Source: a virus (Duplodnaviria > Heunggongvirae > Uroviricota > Caudoviricetes). Taken from it: a stretch of 9,268 nucleotides of DNA. The notes beneath the pieces were generated by a model, which was not told the DNA's origin, did no database searches, and saw only the letters and a list, made by a program, of their open reading frames with translations. Where the stretch lies: IMG/VR virus record IMGVR_UViG_2740892422_000004, positions 1 through 9,268 of that record, one strand, 5' to 3'. Numbering within the stretch: position 1 is the stretch's first letter; the number at the start of each line of letters is the position of its first letter. This document shows positions 1 to 9,268 of the stretch, piece after piece. The position numbers were made by a program, and so were the translations under genes.

Positions 1-89
1 AACAGGAGGGACAGCTGATAGAAACAGAAGCCACTGGAGCACCTCAAAAACACCATCATACACTAAATCAGTAAGTTGGCAGCATCACC
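1..89 (-). mobile_element. IS1 left-end fragment (IRL plus start of insA), element body extends leftward beyond the window
   Basis: Positions 1-89 are the exact reverse complement of 9180-9268 and match, from memory, the IS1 left end GGTGATGCTGCCAACTTACTGAT... The outermost IS1 base is at 89. The insA start (GTG GCT TCT GTT TCT ATC AGC TGT CCC..., MASVSISCP) reads on the minus strand from position 38 leftward. Confidence 0.9.
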
Positions 90-91
90 GA

Positions 92-238
92 TTAAAAAGA
101 GAATATCACATTGCTGAGGCTCGTTACTGGCGTAAAGCGGGAGATAAATCAAAGAAACAACTTTGTTTATGGCAAGCACAAAGAGAGCGCATGAATGAGC
201 GCGAATTTCTTTCCACCCCATCCGAATTACCATTCTGA
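92..238 (+). pseudogene. 3' remnant of a prophage ORF truncated by the left IS1 copy
   Basis: An open frame runs out of the IS1 end without a stop and continues to TGA at 236-238 (...LKREYHIAEARYWRKAGDKSKKQLCLWQAQRERMNEREFLSTPSELPF*), ending 9 nt before the next gene's start. No start codon or ribosome-binding site lies inside the non-IS1 part. Confidence 0.3.
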
Positions 239-246
239 GGCAAATT

Positions 247-927
247 ATGGGAACTGCGACATTAATACTCGGTGAATCTGGCACCGGAAAATCAACCAGC
301 ATGAGAAATATCAATCCAGAGGAAGCAATACTTATAAAACCAATAGGCAAGCCGCTGCCATTTAAATCAAAAGACTGGTTTGCATGGGATACCAGAGCAA
401 AAAAAGGAACCGTAGTTACCACTGACAAATGGGACGTAATAGTTGCCGTAATTAAACGTGCTCACGAATACGGGAAAAGAATCGTTATTGTTGATGACTT
501 CCAGTATGTGATGAGCAATGAGTTTATGCGCCGCTCAGAAGAAAAATCGTTTGATAAGTTTACTGAGATAGGCCGCCACGCATGGGAGGTCATTAAGGCT
601 GCGCAGGATGCGCCTGATGACCTGAGAGTCTATTTTCTTGCGCACACCGAAGAAACTCCTATGGGGCGTGTGAAAATGAAGACTATCGGCAAAATGCTGG
701 ACGAGAAAATCACTGTCGAAGGCATGTTTACTATAGTTCTTCGCACCCTTACCCGTGATGACCAGTTCTTTTTCACCACAAAAAACAACGGTGCAGACAC
801 TGTTAAATCCCCAATGGGAATGTTTGATTCCAATGAGATTGATAACGATCTCTCTTTCGTCGATGCCACTGTTTGTGATTACTACGGCATCAATAATGTT
901 CATCAAATTAAGGAAAACGCCGCATGA
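247..927 (+). CDS. Sak4-like phage recombination ATPase (RecA-like core, AAA_24-type)
   Basis: 226 aa. Walker A GESGTGKST near the N-terminus, Walker B RIVIVDD around residue 80. Size and motif layout fit phage Sak4 single-strand annealing ATPases. Shine-Dalgarno-like tgagg 8 nt upstream of ATG 247. Sits where lambda carries exo/bet in the early-left operon. Confidence 0.75.
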   Translation: MGTATLILGESGTGKSTSMRNINPEEAILIKPIGKPLPFKSKDWFAWDTRAKKGTVVTTDKWDVIVAVIKRAHEYGKRIVIVDDFQYVMSNEFMRRSEEKSFDKFTEIGRHAWEVIKAAQDAPDDLRVYFLAHTEETPMGRVKMKTIGKMLDEKITVEGMFTIVLRTLTRDDQFFFTTKNNGADTVKSPMGMFDSNEIDNDLSFVDATVCDYYGINNVHQIKENAA

Positions 928-1511
928 GCAACGTAATTTTTACTTATAACGAAGAAGCAGCACTGACCGCAGGGCAAGGTGGTTTTATTAACGAAACTGG
1001 CGCTCATATCATTACCATTACTGAAGCAGAACTAAAGCAATCAGAAAAAGGCGCAAAATTTATTGGATTTTCTGGCGAATCCGACGACGGACGTAAAATC
1101 CAATATCTTAGCGTTTGTGTTCAGAAAAATGACGGCACGGAAAATAAATTTGGCGCAAATGTCGTTCACGCCATGATGGGGTGTGCCGGGATTGGACAAT
1201 TAACGCAACATATGGTTTCCACCAGTAAATTTGTTGCACCTGAATTTCATGGAAAGAAAATCGGGTTAGTGCTCCAGAAAGTATTAACCACAAACAAAAA
1301 GACTGGCGCAGACAGCTACCAGATGGAAATACGCATCCCGTTTATTGCACAAACAGGTCAAACCCTTAAAGAAAAGGCGGAAGGCAAGCAACCAGAAACT
1401 ATCGCCAACATGGTTGCCAGCCTCAAAGATAAAGACAATCGCTCTAAAAACGTAAGCCATAATCATGCAGATGATTATGGTTACAGCCAGAACGATTACC
1501 CTCCTTTCTGA
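924..1511 (+). CDS. Sak4-associated putative ssDNA-binding protein with SSB-like C-terminal tip
   Basis: 195 aa. Start ATG overlaps the upstream stop (ATGA), indicating translational coupling. The C-terminus ...HNHADDYGYSQNDYPPF resembles the acidic/aromatic SSB tail (canonical ...DDDIPF). The N-terminal part does not look like a canonical SSB OB-fold by eye, so the function is inferred mainly from context and the tail. Confidence 0.45.
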   Translation: MSNVIFTYNEEAALTAGQGGFINETGAHIITITEAELKQSEKGAKFIGFSGESDDGRKIQYLSVCVQKNDGTENKFGANVVHAMMGCAGIGQLTQHMVSTSKFVAPEFHGKKIGLVLQKVLTTNKKTGADSYQMEIRIPFIAQTGQTLKEKAEGKQPETIANMVASLKDKDNRSKNVSHNHADDYGYSQNDYPPF

Positions 1512-1534
1512 TTACTGAAAATAAGGCTCCCATT

Positions 1535-1831
1535 ATGCCAGCGCCTCTGTATGGTGCGGATGACCCGCGCAACTGCTCCGGTAGCTCCAAGGCGGAGGTG
1601 CTGGAAAATATCAAAAACAATTTCGACGCGTTTCTTGCTCTGACACCAGAAACAAAAGCAGAACGGATGTACCGACGCTATATACAACTCGCGCTAAAAC
1701 AGGAGAAGGACCGAACAAACGAAACAGCAATGAGACCGTTGCGAAAAGCGACAATAGACAAATTCCCTGAATATATCGACCCGCGCCTGCGTAATTACCG
1801 CTCACGCTATGGCGCTATCAGTAATGACTGA
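1535..1831 (+). CDS. hypothetical prophage early-left protein (98 aa)
   Basis: Long ORF in the same orientation as its neighbours, with a charged, non-repetitive composition. The ribosome-binding site is weak (aagg), so the start is uncertain. Confidence 0.45.
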
Positions 1832-1841
1832 GGAATTTACC

Positions 1842-2006
1842 ATGAGAGGACTTGCCTACAATCCCGGCATTCTTCCGGCAGAAATGATTATTCGCCAACG
1901 CGTAAAGCCAATGCCATCGAGAGAGGAATTGCTTAAGAGAAATTCTTTTCCATCAGTGAATCAAAACAAATATCTGAATGCGATGTTGCGGAGTGGGAAG
2001 AAATGA
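1842..2006 (+). CDS. hypothetical small prophage protein (54 aa from ATG 1842; the track ORF starts at 1809)
   Basis: gagg lies 7-8 nt upstream of ATG 1842. Its stop overlaps the next gene's start (ATGA at 2003-2006). Confidence 0.4.
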
Positions 2007-2479
2007 AACAAATGTCACTAATTGAGATGGATGGATTCCTGAAAGGTAAATGCATCCCCCGAGATTTAAAGGTTAACGAAACAAACGCTGAATACCTTGT
2101 CCGTAAGTTCGGTGAACTTGAATCAAAACTGGAAACGGCGTTGCGGGAGTGTCGTTCTGCTGGAATCACGATTGATAACCTTGAGGCTAAATGCGCGAAG
2201 ATGGCTGCTGAAAATACCTCACTTAAGCAATCTGAGAAGGAATTTAATGACTTTTGTCGTGAGGAGTTTAGCGAATGGGAAGATGATGTTACTGAAACCC
2301 CAGCTACCGATGCTTTTCTGGCTGAAATTCGTGCGCAGGGCGTGGATATGGCTCGTAACGCGATGATTGATTTTGTTGATGGTGAAGTTGGGCCAAACAA
2401 GAACGTTCCGGGGCTGATTAGAGGCGCAGAGATATGCGTAAGTATTGCTGAACAGCTTCGCAAAGGAGGCAACCAGTGA
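2003..2479 (+). CDS. hypothetical coiled-coil phage protein (158 aa), possibly Ead/Ea22-like
   Basis: Translationally coupled on both sides (ATGA upstream, GTGA downstream). Acidic, helix-rich composition ([10 protein letters not shown]..., [18 protein letters not shown]). Confidence 0.5.
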
Positions 2480-2919
2480 GCAAGATTGATTATCAAAAGC
2501 TTCGTGAAATCGCTGAAAAAACAAAAATTGCTGGTGAAGCACCTGTAATGCCTTTCGATCAGCGAATTAATGCGCTTAACGATTTTATGAAGCATTTTTC
2601 GCCAGATATCGCGCTGGCATTGTTGGATGAACGGGAAAGAAACCTGCAATACATCAAAAGCCGCGATCAGGAGAACGAGGATATTGCGCTAACGGTAGGG
2701 AAGTGGCGCGTTGAGCTTGAGGCAGAAAAACAGCGGGCAAAGGATCTGTTTATGGAAAATGCTCGGCTTAAGTCAGGCATAGCCGGTCTGATACACCTCG
2801 GTATTCGATATGCAGATGTTGAGGTCATGAGAATTGCTGGAGATGCCCAGCTTTCTACCCCATGCACTGACAGCATCATAAACAGCATTGCAACAGGCAT
2901 TCGCATCAAAGGAGAGTGA
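2476..2919 (+). CDS. Ea22-like protein (147 aa)
   Basis: GTG start at 2476 preceded by aaaggagg. Segments LREIAEK..., ALALLDERERNLQYIKSRDQENEDIALTVGK.RVELE and the C-terminal GIRIKGE match my recollection of lambda Ea22 and the Ead/Ea22-like prophage family. It is shorter than lambda Ea22 (182 aa, from memory). Confidence 0.6.
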   Translation: MSKIDYQKLREIAEKTKIAGEAPVMPFDQRINALNDFMKHFSPDIALALLDERERNLQYIKSRDQENEDIALTVGKWRVELEAEKQRAKDLFMENARLKSGIAGLIHLGIRYADVEVMRIAGDAQLSTPCTDSIINSIATGIRIKGE

Positions 2920-2920
2920 T

Positions 2921-3409
2921 ATGAGCGCTATAACCAAAGAACGTATCAAATTATTCATTAAAAATCCGCTTGATAACGGACTTACTCGTGGCGAACAAAT
3001 GGAACTGGCACGAATTGCACTGGCATCGCTGGAAGCAGAGCCGGTGGCGTGGAAGGTAACATTCACGCAAATTGACCGTGAATATAACACGTTCACTGCT
3101 ATGTATTCTGACAAAGCAGAAGTCGAACGGTGGGTGCGACTGCATGAAGTAGGTGACTTTCGGGCAGATATAACACCGCTTTATACCGCCCAGCCAGCGC
3201 CGGTAATTCCGGATGGTTGGATAAGCTGTAGTGAGCGAATGCCCGCTCAAGATGATTGGATTTTAATTTATTCAAAGCACGGTGAGTATATGGCAGGACA
3301 GGTGCAAGGGGAATACGTGGAGTTGAGCGATGGCACTTTATCGTGGTTAGGGAGCGCCTTGTTCTGGATGCCGCTACCAGAACCGCCGCAGGAGGTTAAC
3401 CGTGGCTAA
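2921..3409 (+). CDS. DUF551-like prophage protein (162 aa from ATG 2921; the track ORF starts in frame at 2888)
   Basis: Strong ribosome-binding site aaaggagag ends 4 nt before ATG 2921, and the upstream gene's stop is at 2917-2919. The C-terminal region DGWISCSERMPAQDDWILIY...WMPLPEPP matches the DUF551 signature as I remember it. Confidence 0.55.
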   Translation: MSAITKERIKLFIKNPLDNGLTRGEQMELARIALASLEAEPVAWKVTFTQIDREYNTFTAMYSDKAEVERWVRLHEVGDFRADITPLYTAQPAPVIPDGWISCSERMPAQDDWILIYSKHGEYMAGQVQGEYVELSDGTLSWLGSALFWMPLPEPPQEVNRG

Positions 3410-3508
3410 CCTGCAACTTGCCGTCAAAGGTGAATAACAATCCTCGCACTCGCGGGGATTTCTTTTATCTGAACTCTCTACGGCGGTTTTTGTTTTATGG
3501 AGATGATT

Positions 3509-3808
3509 ATGATCTGTTCAACATTCAACCATCTAACGTTACAGAAATACCAGCCGGACCCTGAAGATTTATGCTCACTGTGTGGAGTAAATCATGGTAA
3601 AGCCGCCATGATCGAATGTAAGGACAAAATCCACATTTGCCTTAATTGCGTTGATGTCCTCGTTGATATCAAAAATGAGAGAGAAGATAAAAAGCGTAGC
3701 GAGGCTGTTCGCGCCTTAGATTCATGGATGCGAGATGGGTATAGTGCTGCGCAAATTTATGACTTAGCAATATCAAAAGGCGAAATACCAGGAGTGCGCA
3801 TCGAATAA
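3509..3808 (+). CDS. small zinc-ribbon-like protein (CxxC...CxxC), possible regulator (99 aa from ATG 3509)
   Basis: ggag at 3499-3502 lies 6 nt upstream of ATG 3509. Two CxxC pairs (CSLCG ... CLNC) about 25 residues apart; the C-terminal SAAQIYDLAISKGEIPGVRIE looks helix-turn-helix-like. In-frame ATGs at 3497 and 3503 are alternative starts. Confidence 0.5.
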   Translation: MICSTFNHLTLQKYQPDPEDLCSLCGVNHGKAAMIECKDKIHICLNCVDVLVDIKNEREDKKRSEAVRALDSWMRDGYSAAQIYDLAISKGEIPGVRIE

Positions 3809-3850
3809 GACGTAACCAATATTCGAATTGAAGAACTGAAAGAACACCAA

Positions 3851-3872
3851 GCCGCCTGATGGCGGTTTTTTA
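3851..3872 (+). terminator. intrinsic terminator-like hairpin
   Basis: gccgcc-tgat-ggcgg stem-loop (5-6 bp GC stem, 4-nt loop) followed by ttttttatt, 43 nt after the stop of the zinc-ribbon gene and directly before the ribosome-binding site of the next gene. Confidence 0.55.
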
Positions 3873-3885
3873 TTGGAGACAAGAA

Positions 3886-4230
3886 ATGTCAGATTTGGCT
3901 ATGAAGGTTTTGAAATGGCAATCGACTGGCGATGTTGGCATCAGTAGCGCAACTCTTGCCTCAATCGCATGTGGACTGAAAAAGAATATCTATGGTCATC
4001 ACTTCGGCGCTCCACATGACGCAGCAGACTTCCGGCGATGCGTTGCACTTGTTGAGCAGATTCCAGAAATCAGAGCTTCATTCGACAAAGTTGCAAAGCG
4101 CGTTCCTGCATTCAAAGGAATCCTCAACGAATGGGATTCCCTCGTTGCTCTGTTGAAGTCTGAAATGAAGATACACGGAAACAAAGCACCAGAGACTTAC
4201 AGAAGAATCAGCGAGCTACGCAAGGACTAA
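3886..4230 (+). CDS. hypothetical prophage protein (114 aa from ATG 3886; the track ORF starts at 3859 inside the hairpin)
   Basis: ggag at 3875-3878 lies 7 nt upstream of ATG 3886. Begins MSDLAMKVLKWQSTGDV...; no motif I recognise. Confidence 0.5.
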   Translation: MSDLAMKVLKWQSTGDVGISSATLASIACGLKKNIYGHHFGAPHDAADFRRCVALVEQIPEIRASFDKVAKRVPAFKGILNEWDSLVALLKSEMKIHGNKAPETYRRISELRKD

Positions 4231-4289
4231 CCACAGCCTCACACTCGATGAGGCCTGTTCATTTCTCAATGATATCCAGACCTACCATC

Positions 4290-4312
4290 GCCGCATCAAT
4301 GCGGCTTTTCTT
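4290..4312 (+). terminator. intrinsic terminator-like hairpin upstream of xis
   Basis: gccgc-atcaat-gcggc stem-loop followed by ttttctt. A second hairpin, gcctca-cactcga-tgaggc at 4236-4254, follows the upstream stop codon. Confidence 0.45.
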
Positions 4313-4336
4313 GCGTGTAATTGCGGAGACTTTGCG

Positions 4337-4555
4337 ATGTACTTGACACTTCAGGAGTGGAACGCTCGCCAGCGACGCCCAAGAAGCCTTGAAACAGTTC
4401 GTCGATGGGTGCGCGAATGCAGGATATTCCCTCCTCCTGTTAAGGATGGAAGAGAATATCTGTTCCACGAATCAGCGGTAAAGGTTGACTTAAATCGACC
4501 AGTAACAGGTAGCCTTTTGAAGAGGATCAGAAATGGGAAGAAGGCGAAGTCATGA
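4337..4555 (+). CDS. xis: excisionase Xis (lambda-type)
   Basis: 72 aa, MYLTLQEWNARQRRPRSLETVRRWVRECRIFPPPVKDGREYLFHESAVKVDLNRPV..., essentially the lambda Xis sequence as I recall it. Its 3' end overlaps the int start, as in lambda. Confidence 0.93.
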   Translation: MYLTLQEWNARQRRPRSLETVRRWVRECRIFPPPVKDGREYLFHESAVKVDLNRPVTGSLLKRIRNGKKAKS

Positions 4556-5603
4556 GCGCCGGGATTTACCCCCTAACCTTTATATAAGAAACAATGGATA
4601 TTACTGCTACAGGGACCCAAGGACGGGTAAAGAGTTCGGATTAGGCAGAGACAGGAGGATAGCAATCACTGAAGCAATACATGCCAACATTGAGTTATTT
4701 TCAGGACACAAACACAAGCCTCTGACAGCGAGAATCAACAGTGATAATTCTGTTACGTTACATTCATGGCTTGATCGCTACGAAAAAATCCTCGCCAGCA
4801 GAGGAATCAAGCAGAAGACACTCATAAATTACATGAGCAAAATTAAAGCAATAAGGAGGGGGCTGCCTGATGCTCCACTTGAAGACATCACCACAAAAGA
4901 AATTGCGGCAATGCTCAATGGATACATAGACGAGGGCAAGGCTGCGTCAGCCAAGTTAATCAGATCAACACTGAGCGATGCATTCCGAGAGGCTATAGCT
5001 GAAGGCCATATAACAACAAACCCGGTCGCAGCCACTCGCGCAGCAAAATCAGAGGTAAGGAGATCAAGACTTACGGCTGACGAATACCTGAAAATTTATC
5101 AAGCAGCAGAATCATCACCATGTTGGCTAAGACTTGCAATGGAACTGGCTGTTGTTACCGGGCAGCGAGTTGGGGATTTATGCGAAATGAAATGGTCTGA
5201 TATCGTAGATGGATATCTTTATGTCGAGCAAAGCAAAACAGGCGTAAAAATTGCCATCCCTACAACGTTGCATGTTGATGTTCTCGGAATATCAATGAAG
5301 GAAACACTTGATAAATGCAAAGAGATTCTTGGCGGAGAAACCATAATTGCATCTACTCGTCGCGAACCGCTTTCATCCGGCACAGTATCAAGGTATTTTA
5401 TGCGCGCACGAAAAGCATCAGGTCTTTCCTTCGAAGGGGATCCGCCTACCTTTCACGAGTTGCGCAGTTTGTCTGCAAGACTCTATGAGAAGCAGATAAG
5501 CGATAAGTTTGCTCAACATCTTCTCGGGCATAAGTCGGACACCATGGCATCACAGTATCGTGATGACAGAGGCAGGGAGTGGGACAAAATTGAAATCAAA
5601 TAA
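4533..5603 (+). CDS. int: tyrosine integrase Int (lambda-type)
   Basis: 356 aa, MGRRRSHERRDLPPNLYIRNNGYYCYRDPRTGKEFGLGRDRRIAITEA...HELRSLSARLYEKQISDKFAQHLLGHKSDTMASQYRDDRGREWDKIEIK, near-identical to lambda Int from memory with a few substitutions. Lies adjacent to the att site. Confidence 0.96.
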   Translation: MGRRRSHERRDLPPNLYIRNNGYYCYRDPRTGKEFGLGRDRRIAITEAIHANIELFSGHKHKPLTARINSDNSVTLHSWLDRYEKILASRGIKQKTLINYMSKIKAIRRGLPDAPLEDITTKEIAAMLNGYIDEGKAASAKLIRSTLSDAFREAIAEGHITTNPVAATRAAKSEVRRSRLTADEYLKIYQAAESSPCWLRLAMELAVVTGQRVGDLCEMKWSDIVDGYLYVEQSKTGVKIAIPTTLHVDVLGISMKETLDKCKEILGGETIIASTRREPLSSGTVSRYFMRARKASGLSFEGDPPTFHELRSLSARLYEKQISDKFAQHLLGHKSDTMASQYRDDRGREWDKIEIK

Positions 5604-5700
5604 TGATTTTATTTTGACTGATAGTGACCTGTTCGTTGCAACAAATTGATAAGCAATGCTTTTTTATAATGCCAACTTAGTATAAAAAAGCAGGCTTCAA
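5604..5700 (-). other. prophage attachment junction attL (B-O-P'), lambda att core on the minus strand
   Basis: 5604-5676 matches the lambda P' arm (ttgataagcaatgcttttttataatgccaactt, read on the opposite strand). The core TTAGTATAAAAAAGC at 5677-5691 is the reverse complement of GCTTTTTTATACTAA. The sequence after the core (aggcttca...) matches the attB bacterial arm, not attP. Confidence 0.9.
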
Positions 5701-7029: not shown

Positions 7030-7245
<216 letters not shown>

Positions 7246-9175: not shown

Positions 9176-9268
9176 GGTGATGCTGCCAACTTACTGATTT
9201 AGTGTATGATGGTGTTTTTGAGGTGCTCCAGTGGCTTCTGTTTCTATCAGCTGTCCCTCCTGTTCAGC
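9176..9268 (+). mobile_element. IS1 left-end fragment (IRL plus start of insA), element body extends rightward beyond the window
   Basis: ggtgatgctgccaacttactgatttagtgtatgatggtgtttttgaggtgctccagtggcttctgtttctatcagctgtccctcctgttcagc matches the IS1 left end from memory. The insA GTG start is at 9231. The exact first base is uncertain by 1-2 nt because of the flanking g-run. Confidence 0.92.

Follow-up and report, generated by a model that had tools for sequence, protein, structure and literature searches.

The DNA stretch analysed here (the window, a complete 9,268-bp draft contig; JRGC01000069.1, GCA_000754855.1) very probably carries an HK620-type Rec module, sak4-ssb-abc2, within a lambdoid prophage at the E. 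coli lambda attachment site, and this module very probably works as it does in coliphage HK620. It appears to occupy the place in the early left operon where lambda has exo, bet and gam, and no homologue of these three genes was found with Pfam or PHROGs among the ten ORFs between IS1 and int. The initial annotation had proposed a recombination module other than Red at this position; sak4 and ssb do lie there, together with a third gene, abc2, that its description had not included.

Because the mechanism has been shown for HK620 proteins that are 98–99% identical to those of the window, we infer the same steps here. The SSB, reported to be a tetramer, would coat single-stranded DNA (ssDNA) and leave its C-terminal NDYPPF tip exposed, and Sak4, a monomer consisting of a RecA core only, would need both ATP and the tip to bind the SSB-coated ssDNA, and would anneal complementary strands. 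The SSB would in this way serve as a platform for loading Sak4 instead of obstructing it. Abc2 would bind RecC and modify host RecBCD, leaving the host enzyme to provide the end resection that lambda assigns to its own Exo (PMC5928155, PMC12315714); resection supplied in this way would explain why the module encodes no nuclease.

Table 1 Features of the window that bear on the Rec module, its surroundings and its integration site
Feature	Coordinates	Strand	Evidence or description
IS1 terminal ~89 bp, inverted repeat and beginning of insA, which runs out over the left edge	1..89	-	Comparison with CE10 IS1 and InsA
hkaM-like gene, 3' part	89..238	+	48/49 residues identical to HK620 HkaM residues 14-62
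sak4 (hkaL homologue)	247..927	+	Putative 226-aa core-only RecA/Rad51-like ATP-dependent ssDNA annealase; PHROGs, Pfam, HK620 identity
Walker A of sak4	271-294	+	GESGTGKS, residues 9-16, from translation
Walker B of sak4	481-498	+	IVIVDD, residues 79-84, from translation
AGGA	911..914	+	Nine bases 5' of the ssb ATG; from sequence
sak4 stop/ssb start overlap, ATGA	924..927	+	From sequence
ssb (hkaK homologue, 'SSB-2' in PMC12315714)	924..1511	+	Putative 195-aa divergent OB-fold ssDNA-binding protein with disordered tail
C-terminal tip codons, NDYPPF, Sak4-recruiting motif	1491..1508	+	Same as in HK620
abc2, P22-type anti-RecBCD, third Rec-module gene	1535..1831	+	PF11043 E=9e-36; phrog_656 E=5e-45
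xis, lambda-type excisionase	4337..4555	+	PF07825 E=4e-41; 97.7-98.8% DNA identity to lambda, HK97 and 434
int, lambda-type tyrosine integrase	4533..5603	+	DNA identity; Pfam Arm-DNA-bind_1 and Phage_integrase
lambda att core GCTTTTTTATACTAA, prophage/host junction by ybhC	5677..5691	-	One exact match against 0 expected
Right IS1 end, truncating ybhJ	9177..9268		Same IS1 terminus, inverted

The closest characterized relatives of the gene pair are those of HK620, to whose hkaL/hkaK the 1,265-bp sak4-ssb stretch is 97.9% identical at the DNA level. Sak4 shares 223 of 226 residues (99%) with HK620 Sak4 (NP_112045), from which it differs by E43D, L45F and A48T with both Walker motifs unchanged. 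The SSB shares 191 of 195 residues (98%) with SSB_HK620; the substitutions are E48G, A100T, V153E and Q179H, and its C terminus, ...DDYGYSQNDYPPF, keeps the NDYPPF tip of the HK620 protein, bearing out the SSB-like tip that the initial annotation had noticed. In PHROGs the 226-aa protein matches phrog_2872, 'Sak4-like ssDNA annealing protein' (E=6e-108; residues 1-220 of 226 against profile positions 1-218 of 219), and the 195-aa protein matches phrog_743, 'single strand DNA binding protein' (E=4e-66). Given these matches and the DNA identity to HK620, we take neither gene to be a chance ORF. The ORFs, Walker motifs and 4-bp overlap are as first described, and the ATGA overlap, which probably couples translation of the two genes, recurs in HK620 and in a Proteus prophage, where Sak4 and SSB have 64% and 57% identity to the window proteins. 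HK620 shares the gene order (hkaL/hkaK/hkaJ) and the protein lengths as well (226, 195 and 98 aa).

Both HK620 proteins, Sak4 and HkaK, were purified by Hutinet et al. in 2018 (PMC5928155). Sak4 was a monomer that bound ssDNA only with ATP and that, alone, was a weak ATP-dependent annealase. HkaK (SSB_HK620) eluted at ~95 kDa, was reported as a tetramer, shifted ssDNA as E. coli SSB does with a 4-fold lower affinity, and, like E. coli SSB, blocked RecA-mediated annealing. HkaK strongly stimulated annealing by Sak4, an effect that required the six C-terminal residues of HkaK; HkaK lacking the tip still bound ssDNA and became a barrier to Sak4. A Sak4/SSB/ssDNA ternary complex required ATP and the last six SSB residues, NDYPPF, and direct contact between Sak4 and SSB was never seen in solution. 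In vivo, recombineering rose over background 15-fold with sak4 alone and 210-fold with sak4 and ssb; deletion of the tip lowered it ~10-fold, and abc2 added nothing in the same assay (all PMC5928155). The recombineering and tip-deletion experiments that the initial annotation had proposed were thus already published for the HK620 pair. A 2025 survey sorted 325 lambdoid phages into 13 Rec module types, the HK620 module (Sak4, 'SSB-2' and Abc2) among them (PMC12315714). At 99% identity, the Sak4 of the window would be expected to bind and anneal ssDNA in an ATP-dependent manner, and its SSB, 98% identical to the HK620 protein, would be expected to bind ssDNA and to stimulate Sak4 through the tip.

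The genes may be rightly identified and nevertheless form an inert remnant in this contig, the operon being cut by IS1, the rest of the prophage possibly gone and the module unexpressed or unused; we consider this somewhat unlikely. It draws on the IS1 end that lies inside the hkaM-like gene, on the second IS1 that truncates ybhJ, on a contig without prophage DNA beyond IS1, and on a glycine at a conserved glutamate position of the SSB. The left IS1, 158 bp upstream of sak4, has cost the hkaM-like gene its start codon and first 13 codons, and HK620 homology begins only at base 89. Positions 3-85 are 88% identical to the 5' end of the annotated IS1 of CE10, and the minus strand from 34 to 1 reads VASVSISCPSC, against VASISIRCPSC... 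in CE10 InsA; positions 67-89 presumably hold the IS1 terminal repeat. In CE10 the annotated IS1 is located in ybhJ, not upstream of sak4. The IS1/hkaM junction had 0 exact matches in a search of one genome per species, and none among complete E. coli genomes either.

Against an inert remnant, every ORF in the run from sak4 through int is unbroken, with 96-99% identity to its counterpart in functional phages. The contig stops at IS1 because the assembly broke at this repeat, an artefact that is no evidence for loss of the remaining prophage. The upstream IS1 may block or alter sak4-ssb expression; however, N-antiterminated transcription from pL can read through IS polarity. As for the SSB, residue 48 (codons 47-48 at 1063-1068) is Glu in 39 of 40 close and 78 of 104 distant relatives, and no other aligned sequence has Gly. 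The identical G48 protein is nevertheless encoded by P22-like prophages that look complete and are integrated at a different site, and we therefore rejected E48G as a private damaging mutation.

The contig begins and ends with one and the same IS1 terminus, the two copies being inverted relative to each other and matching at 100% over 90 bp. The 9.1-kb segment between the inverted copies resembles a composite transposon, and two independent insertions are equally possible. A sigma-70-like site (TTGGCA-17-GAGAAT, 76..104, + strand) spans the IS1/phage junction, points toward sak4 and could be a hybrid promoter. We make no promoter claim for it, because shuffled sequence yields such sites at least as often as the window does (3.7 expected, 2 observed). 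Between ybhC and ybhJ lie two tandem ~92-bp palindromic repeat units of the REP/BIME type (7037-7231), which together with the IS1 ends explain the ~196,000 places in E. coli genomes that match the window.

The partner protein had been described as unlike a canonical SSB, which holds at the sequence level. Pfam and NCBIfam gave no match to the 195-aa protein, even at E<=10, so that neither the Pfam SSB profile nor DUF669 (PF05037) was matched; PDB sequence searches with the single protein and with 41- and 105-sequence profiles gave no meaningful match. DUF669 is weakly matched by 8 of 41 close relatives (best E 0.003) and 2 of 105 distant ones (best E 0.001), many relatives carry the DUF669 name at NCBI, and HkaK has been equated with DUF669 (PMC5928155). 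In a confident AlphaFold2 model built with 41 homologues (pLDDT 83.8, pTM 0.73), residues 26-140 form a core rich in beta structure and residues 177-195 a disordered tail (pLDDT <50). Foldseek of this model against the PDB returned PrgE of pCF10 first (E=5.6e-5), followed by many SsbA, SSB and PriB chains. The model thus supports an OB fold whose structural neighbours are ssDNA-binding proteins. In hhalign, the 105-sequence family profile aligned with E. coli SSB at 86% probability over 23 columns only, residues 117-140 of the window protein facing 84-106 of E. coli SSB, which we take to be the beta4-beta5 hairpin. Since Pfam DUF669 and Pfam SSB were not reached, we would place the protein in the SSB superfamily on its predicted structure and on the published biochemistry. 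With E. coli SSB it would share the predicted OB fold, a disordered linker and an acidic/aromatic partner-recruiting tip ending in PF.

The initial annotation had left room for a distinct SSB-like protein or an adaptor. The first part stands, given the modelled OB fold and the ssDNA binding of the HK620 homologue; the second is not needed. An adaptor that is not an SSB and that mimics the SSB tip to recruit host SSB-interacting proteins, or Sak4, might be read from the missing Pfam and PDB sequence matches. It is nonetheless very improbable, for the HK620 homologue, at 98% identity, gives gel shifts with ssDNA, prevents annealing by RecA and binds ssDNA without its tip (PMC5928155), and both the modelled fold with its ssDNA-binding neighbours and the short alignment to E. 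coli SSB (86% probability, 23 columns) point to an SSB.

An exhaustive profile search gave at least 689 representatives of the HkaK/'SSB-2' family at 50% identity clustering. A set of 105 diverse, full-length members contains 60 that finish with PF and 43 that finish with D[ILVM]PF, so that the family consensus tip, FDDDIPF, is that of E. coli SSB. An ssb adjoining sak4 has been reported for ~80% of sak4 genes, and the adjacency is kept in HK620, JEP4, Lc-Nu and prophages of Proteus and Photorhabdus; judging from these comparisons, sak4 and ssb appear to be a conserved unit whose members move together. In the Proteus and Photorhabdus prophages (Sak4 64-67% and SSB 54-57% identical to the window proteins), the pair comes after an exonuclease gene (RNase_T/ExoX-like or DNA_pol_B_exo2) and is not followed by abc2; the exonuclease is a different route to end resection. 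In the representative library, a 5,242-aa protein matches SSB-profile positions 14-61 in 25 separate stretches (E=1e-23), and may be a giant protein made of repeated beta-hairpins like that of the SSB, or the match may be an artefact of composition.

The Lactobacillus phage Lc-Nu has, as the window does, an adjoining sak4-ssb pair in its recombination module, but its proteins fall more clearly into the Pfam families. Its SSB is a clear DUF669 member (44 bits) whereas the window SSB scores nothing, and its Sak4 scores 135 bits with AAA_24 against 31 bits for the window Sak4. Hutinet et al. linked HkaK to the Lc-Nu SSB by HHsearch (PMC5928155); with hhalign, the HkaK-family profile reached the Lc-Nu SSB at a probability of only 19%.

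The one lead that goes mildly beyond the published literature is that PrgE, from the Enterococcus plasmid pCF10 (PDB 8s4s/8s4t), would be the nearest solved structure to this SSB family. PrgE is 13% identical to the window SSB. It binds ssDNA and dsDNA equally, like beads on a string, via its N-terminal tail; its authors could identify no close homologue by structure, and speculated that it came from a phage (PMC11137577). SSB_HK620, unlike PrgE, is reported to be a tetramer that behaves like E. coli SSB. No sequence-level link between PrgE and the SSB was found in PDB searches with the 41- and 105-sequence profiles or by way of Lc-Nu, and we dropped the Lc-Nu SSB as a bridge, as it gave no phmmer match to PrgE and reached only the 19% probability given above with the HkaK profile. 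That the HkaK/'SSB-2' family is the phage family from which PrgE derives is rather unlikely. Should homology hold, the family would gain its first solved template in PrgE, and the phage SSBs might form PrgE-like filaments via their conserved N-terminal MSNVIFTYNEE... rather than wrap ssDNA as E. coli SSB does, which would change the picture of Sak4 loading.

The initial annotation had assigned the 226-aa ATPase to the Sak4 family, and this is supported by the full-length phrog_2872 match, by Pfam AAA_24 (31.1 bits, just over the cutoff of 27) and by the identity to the characterized HK620 Sak4. Generic AAA_22 and ABC P-loop models match too, all P-loop models falling at residues 2-24. Such generic matches, the narrow AAA_24 score, a RefSeq name that reads merely 'ATP-binding protein' and a PADLOC mad8 match (E=2e-5) could be taken to indicate a defence, abortive-infection or other non-recombination ATPase, a reading with hardly any probability at all, which we rejected because the PADLOC match is confined to the P-loop region (residues 1-23, with no single stretch significant by itself), while the full-length Sak4 PHROG match, the 99% identity to a protein with proven annealase and recombineering activity and the conserved linkage to ssb and an anti-RecBCD or exonuclease gene all speak for Sak4.

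The third gene of the HK620-type module, abc2, encodes a protein that scores 122 bits with PF11043 against a cutoff of 25 and is 61% identical to HK620 Abc2, and is thus a different allele. Because Sak4 and SSB are 98-99% identical to their HK620 counterparts and the adjoining Abc2 only 61%, a sharp mosaic boundary can be placed after ssb, between 1511 and 1535, and the pair would seem to move as a unit. Downstream, between the DUF551 gene and xis, lie two conserved phage ORFs (3497-3808 and 3859-4230) of unassigned function, one matching phrog_3680 (E=8e-68), with a weak ClpX-type zinc-finger-like CxxC...CxxC, and the other phrog_1229 (E=4e-51). Phage homology stops at 5691, beyond which come the host genes ybhC and then ybhJ.

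Modular mosaicism, as first suggested from the pairing with lambda-type integration genes, is borne out, and the same combination already exists in the phages HK629 and JEP4. The int/xis genes had been called lambda-identical; they are of lambda type but not identical, with 97.7% DNA identity to lambda and 98.8% to HK97. The integrase of HK620, by contrast, is of the IntS type. HK629 (NC_019711) and JEP4 (MT740315) have the Sak4-SSB-Abc2 module, lambda-type int/xis and the lambda att core, as in the window. JEP4 covers 71% of window positions 89-5691 at 97.8% identity and HK629 65% at 95.6%; both phages depart patchily from the window in the ea-region genes that lie between abc2 and xis, and, unlike the window, neither contains an IS1.

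The module is present in 195 of 5,426 complete E. coli genomes, and 66 phage records carry it at >=95% identity; 59 of the 71 matching records are Stx-converting phages. PGAP names near-identical copies of the SSB inconsistently, as 'hypothetical protein' or 'DUF669 domain-containing protein', and in RefSeq/PGAP Sak4 is only an 'ATP-binding protein', whereas the curated HK620 RefSeq record has functional names. The correct labels are Sak4 annealase and cognate SSB. Since the module is common, and its high-identity phage records belong mainly to Stx-converting phages, proper labelling would aid work on prophage recombination and mosaicism. Beyond annotation the finding has little significance, since the system is known in detail and publications already cover how it works, its dependence on the tip and its modular exchange with lambda Red.

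The lambda Red system likewise lies in the early left operon, between cIII/kil and xis/int, and serves the same task, single-strand annealing recombination together with control of RecBCD, but its proteins are unrelated to those of the Sak4 module. Sak4 is built on a RecA-like ATPase core and depends on ATP; lambda Beta, by contrast, is Rad52-like and ATP-independent. Unlike lambda Red, the Sak4 module has no exonuclease and requires a dedicated SSB, and where lambda Gam blocks RecBCD, Abc2 redirects it (PMC5928155; PMC12315714).
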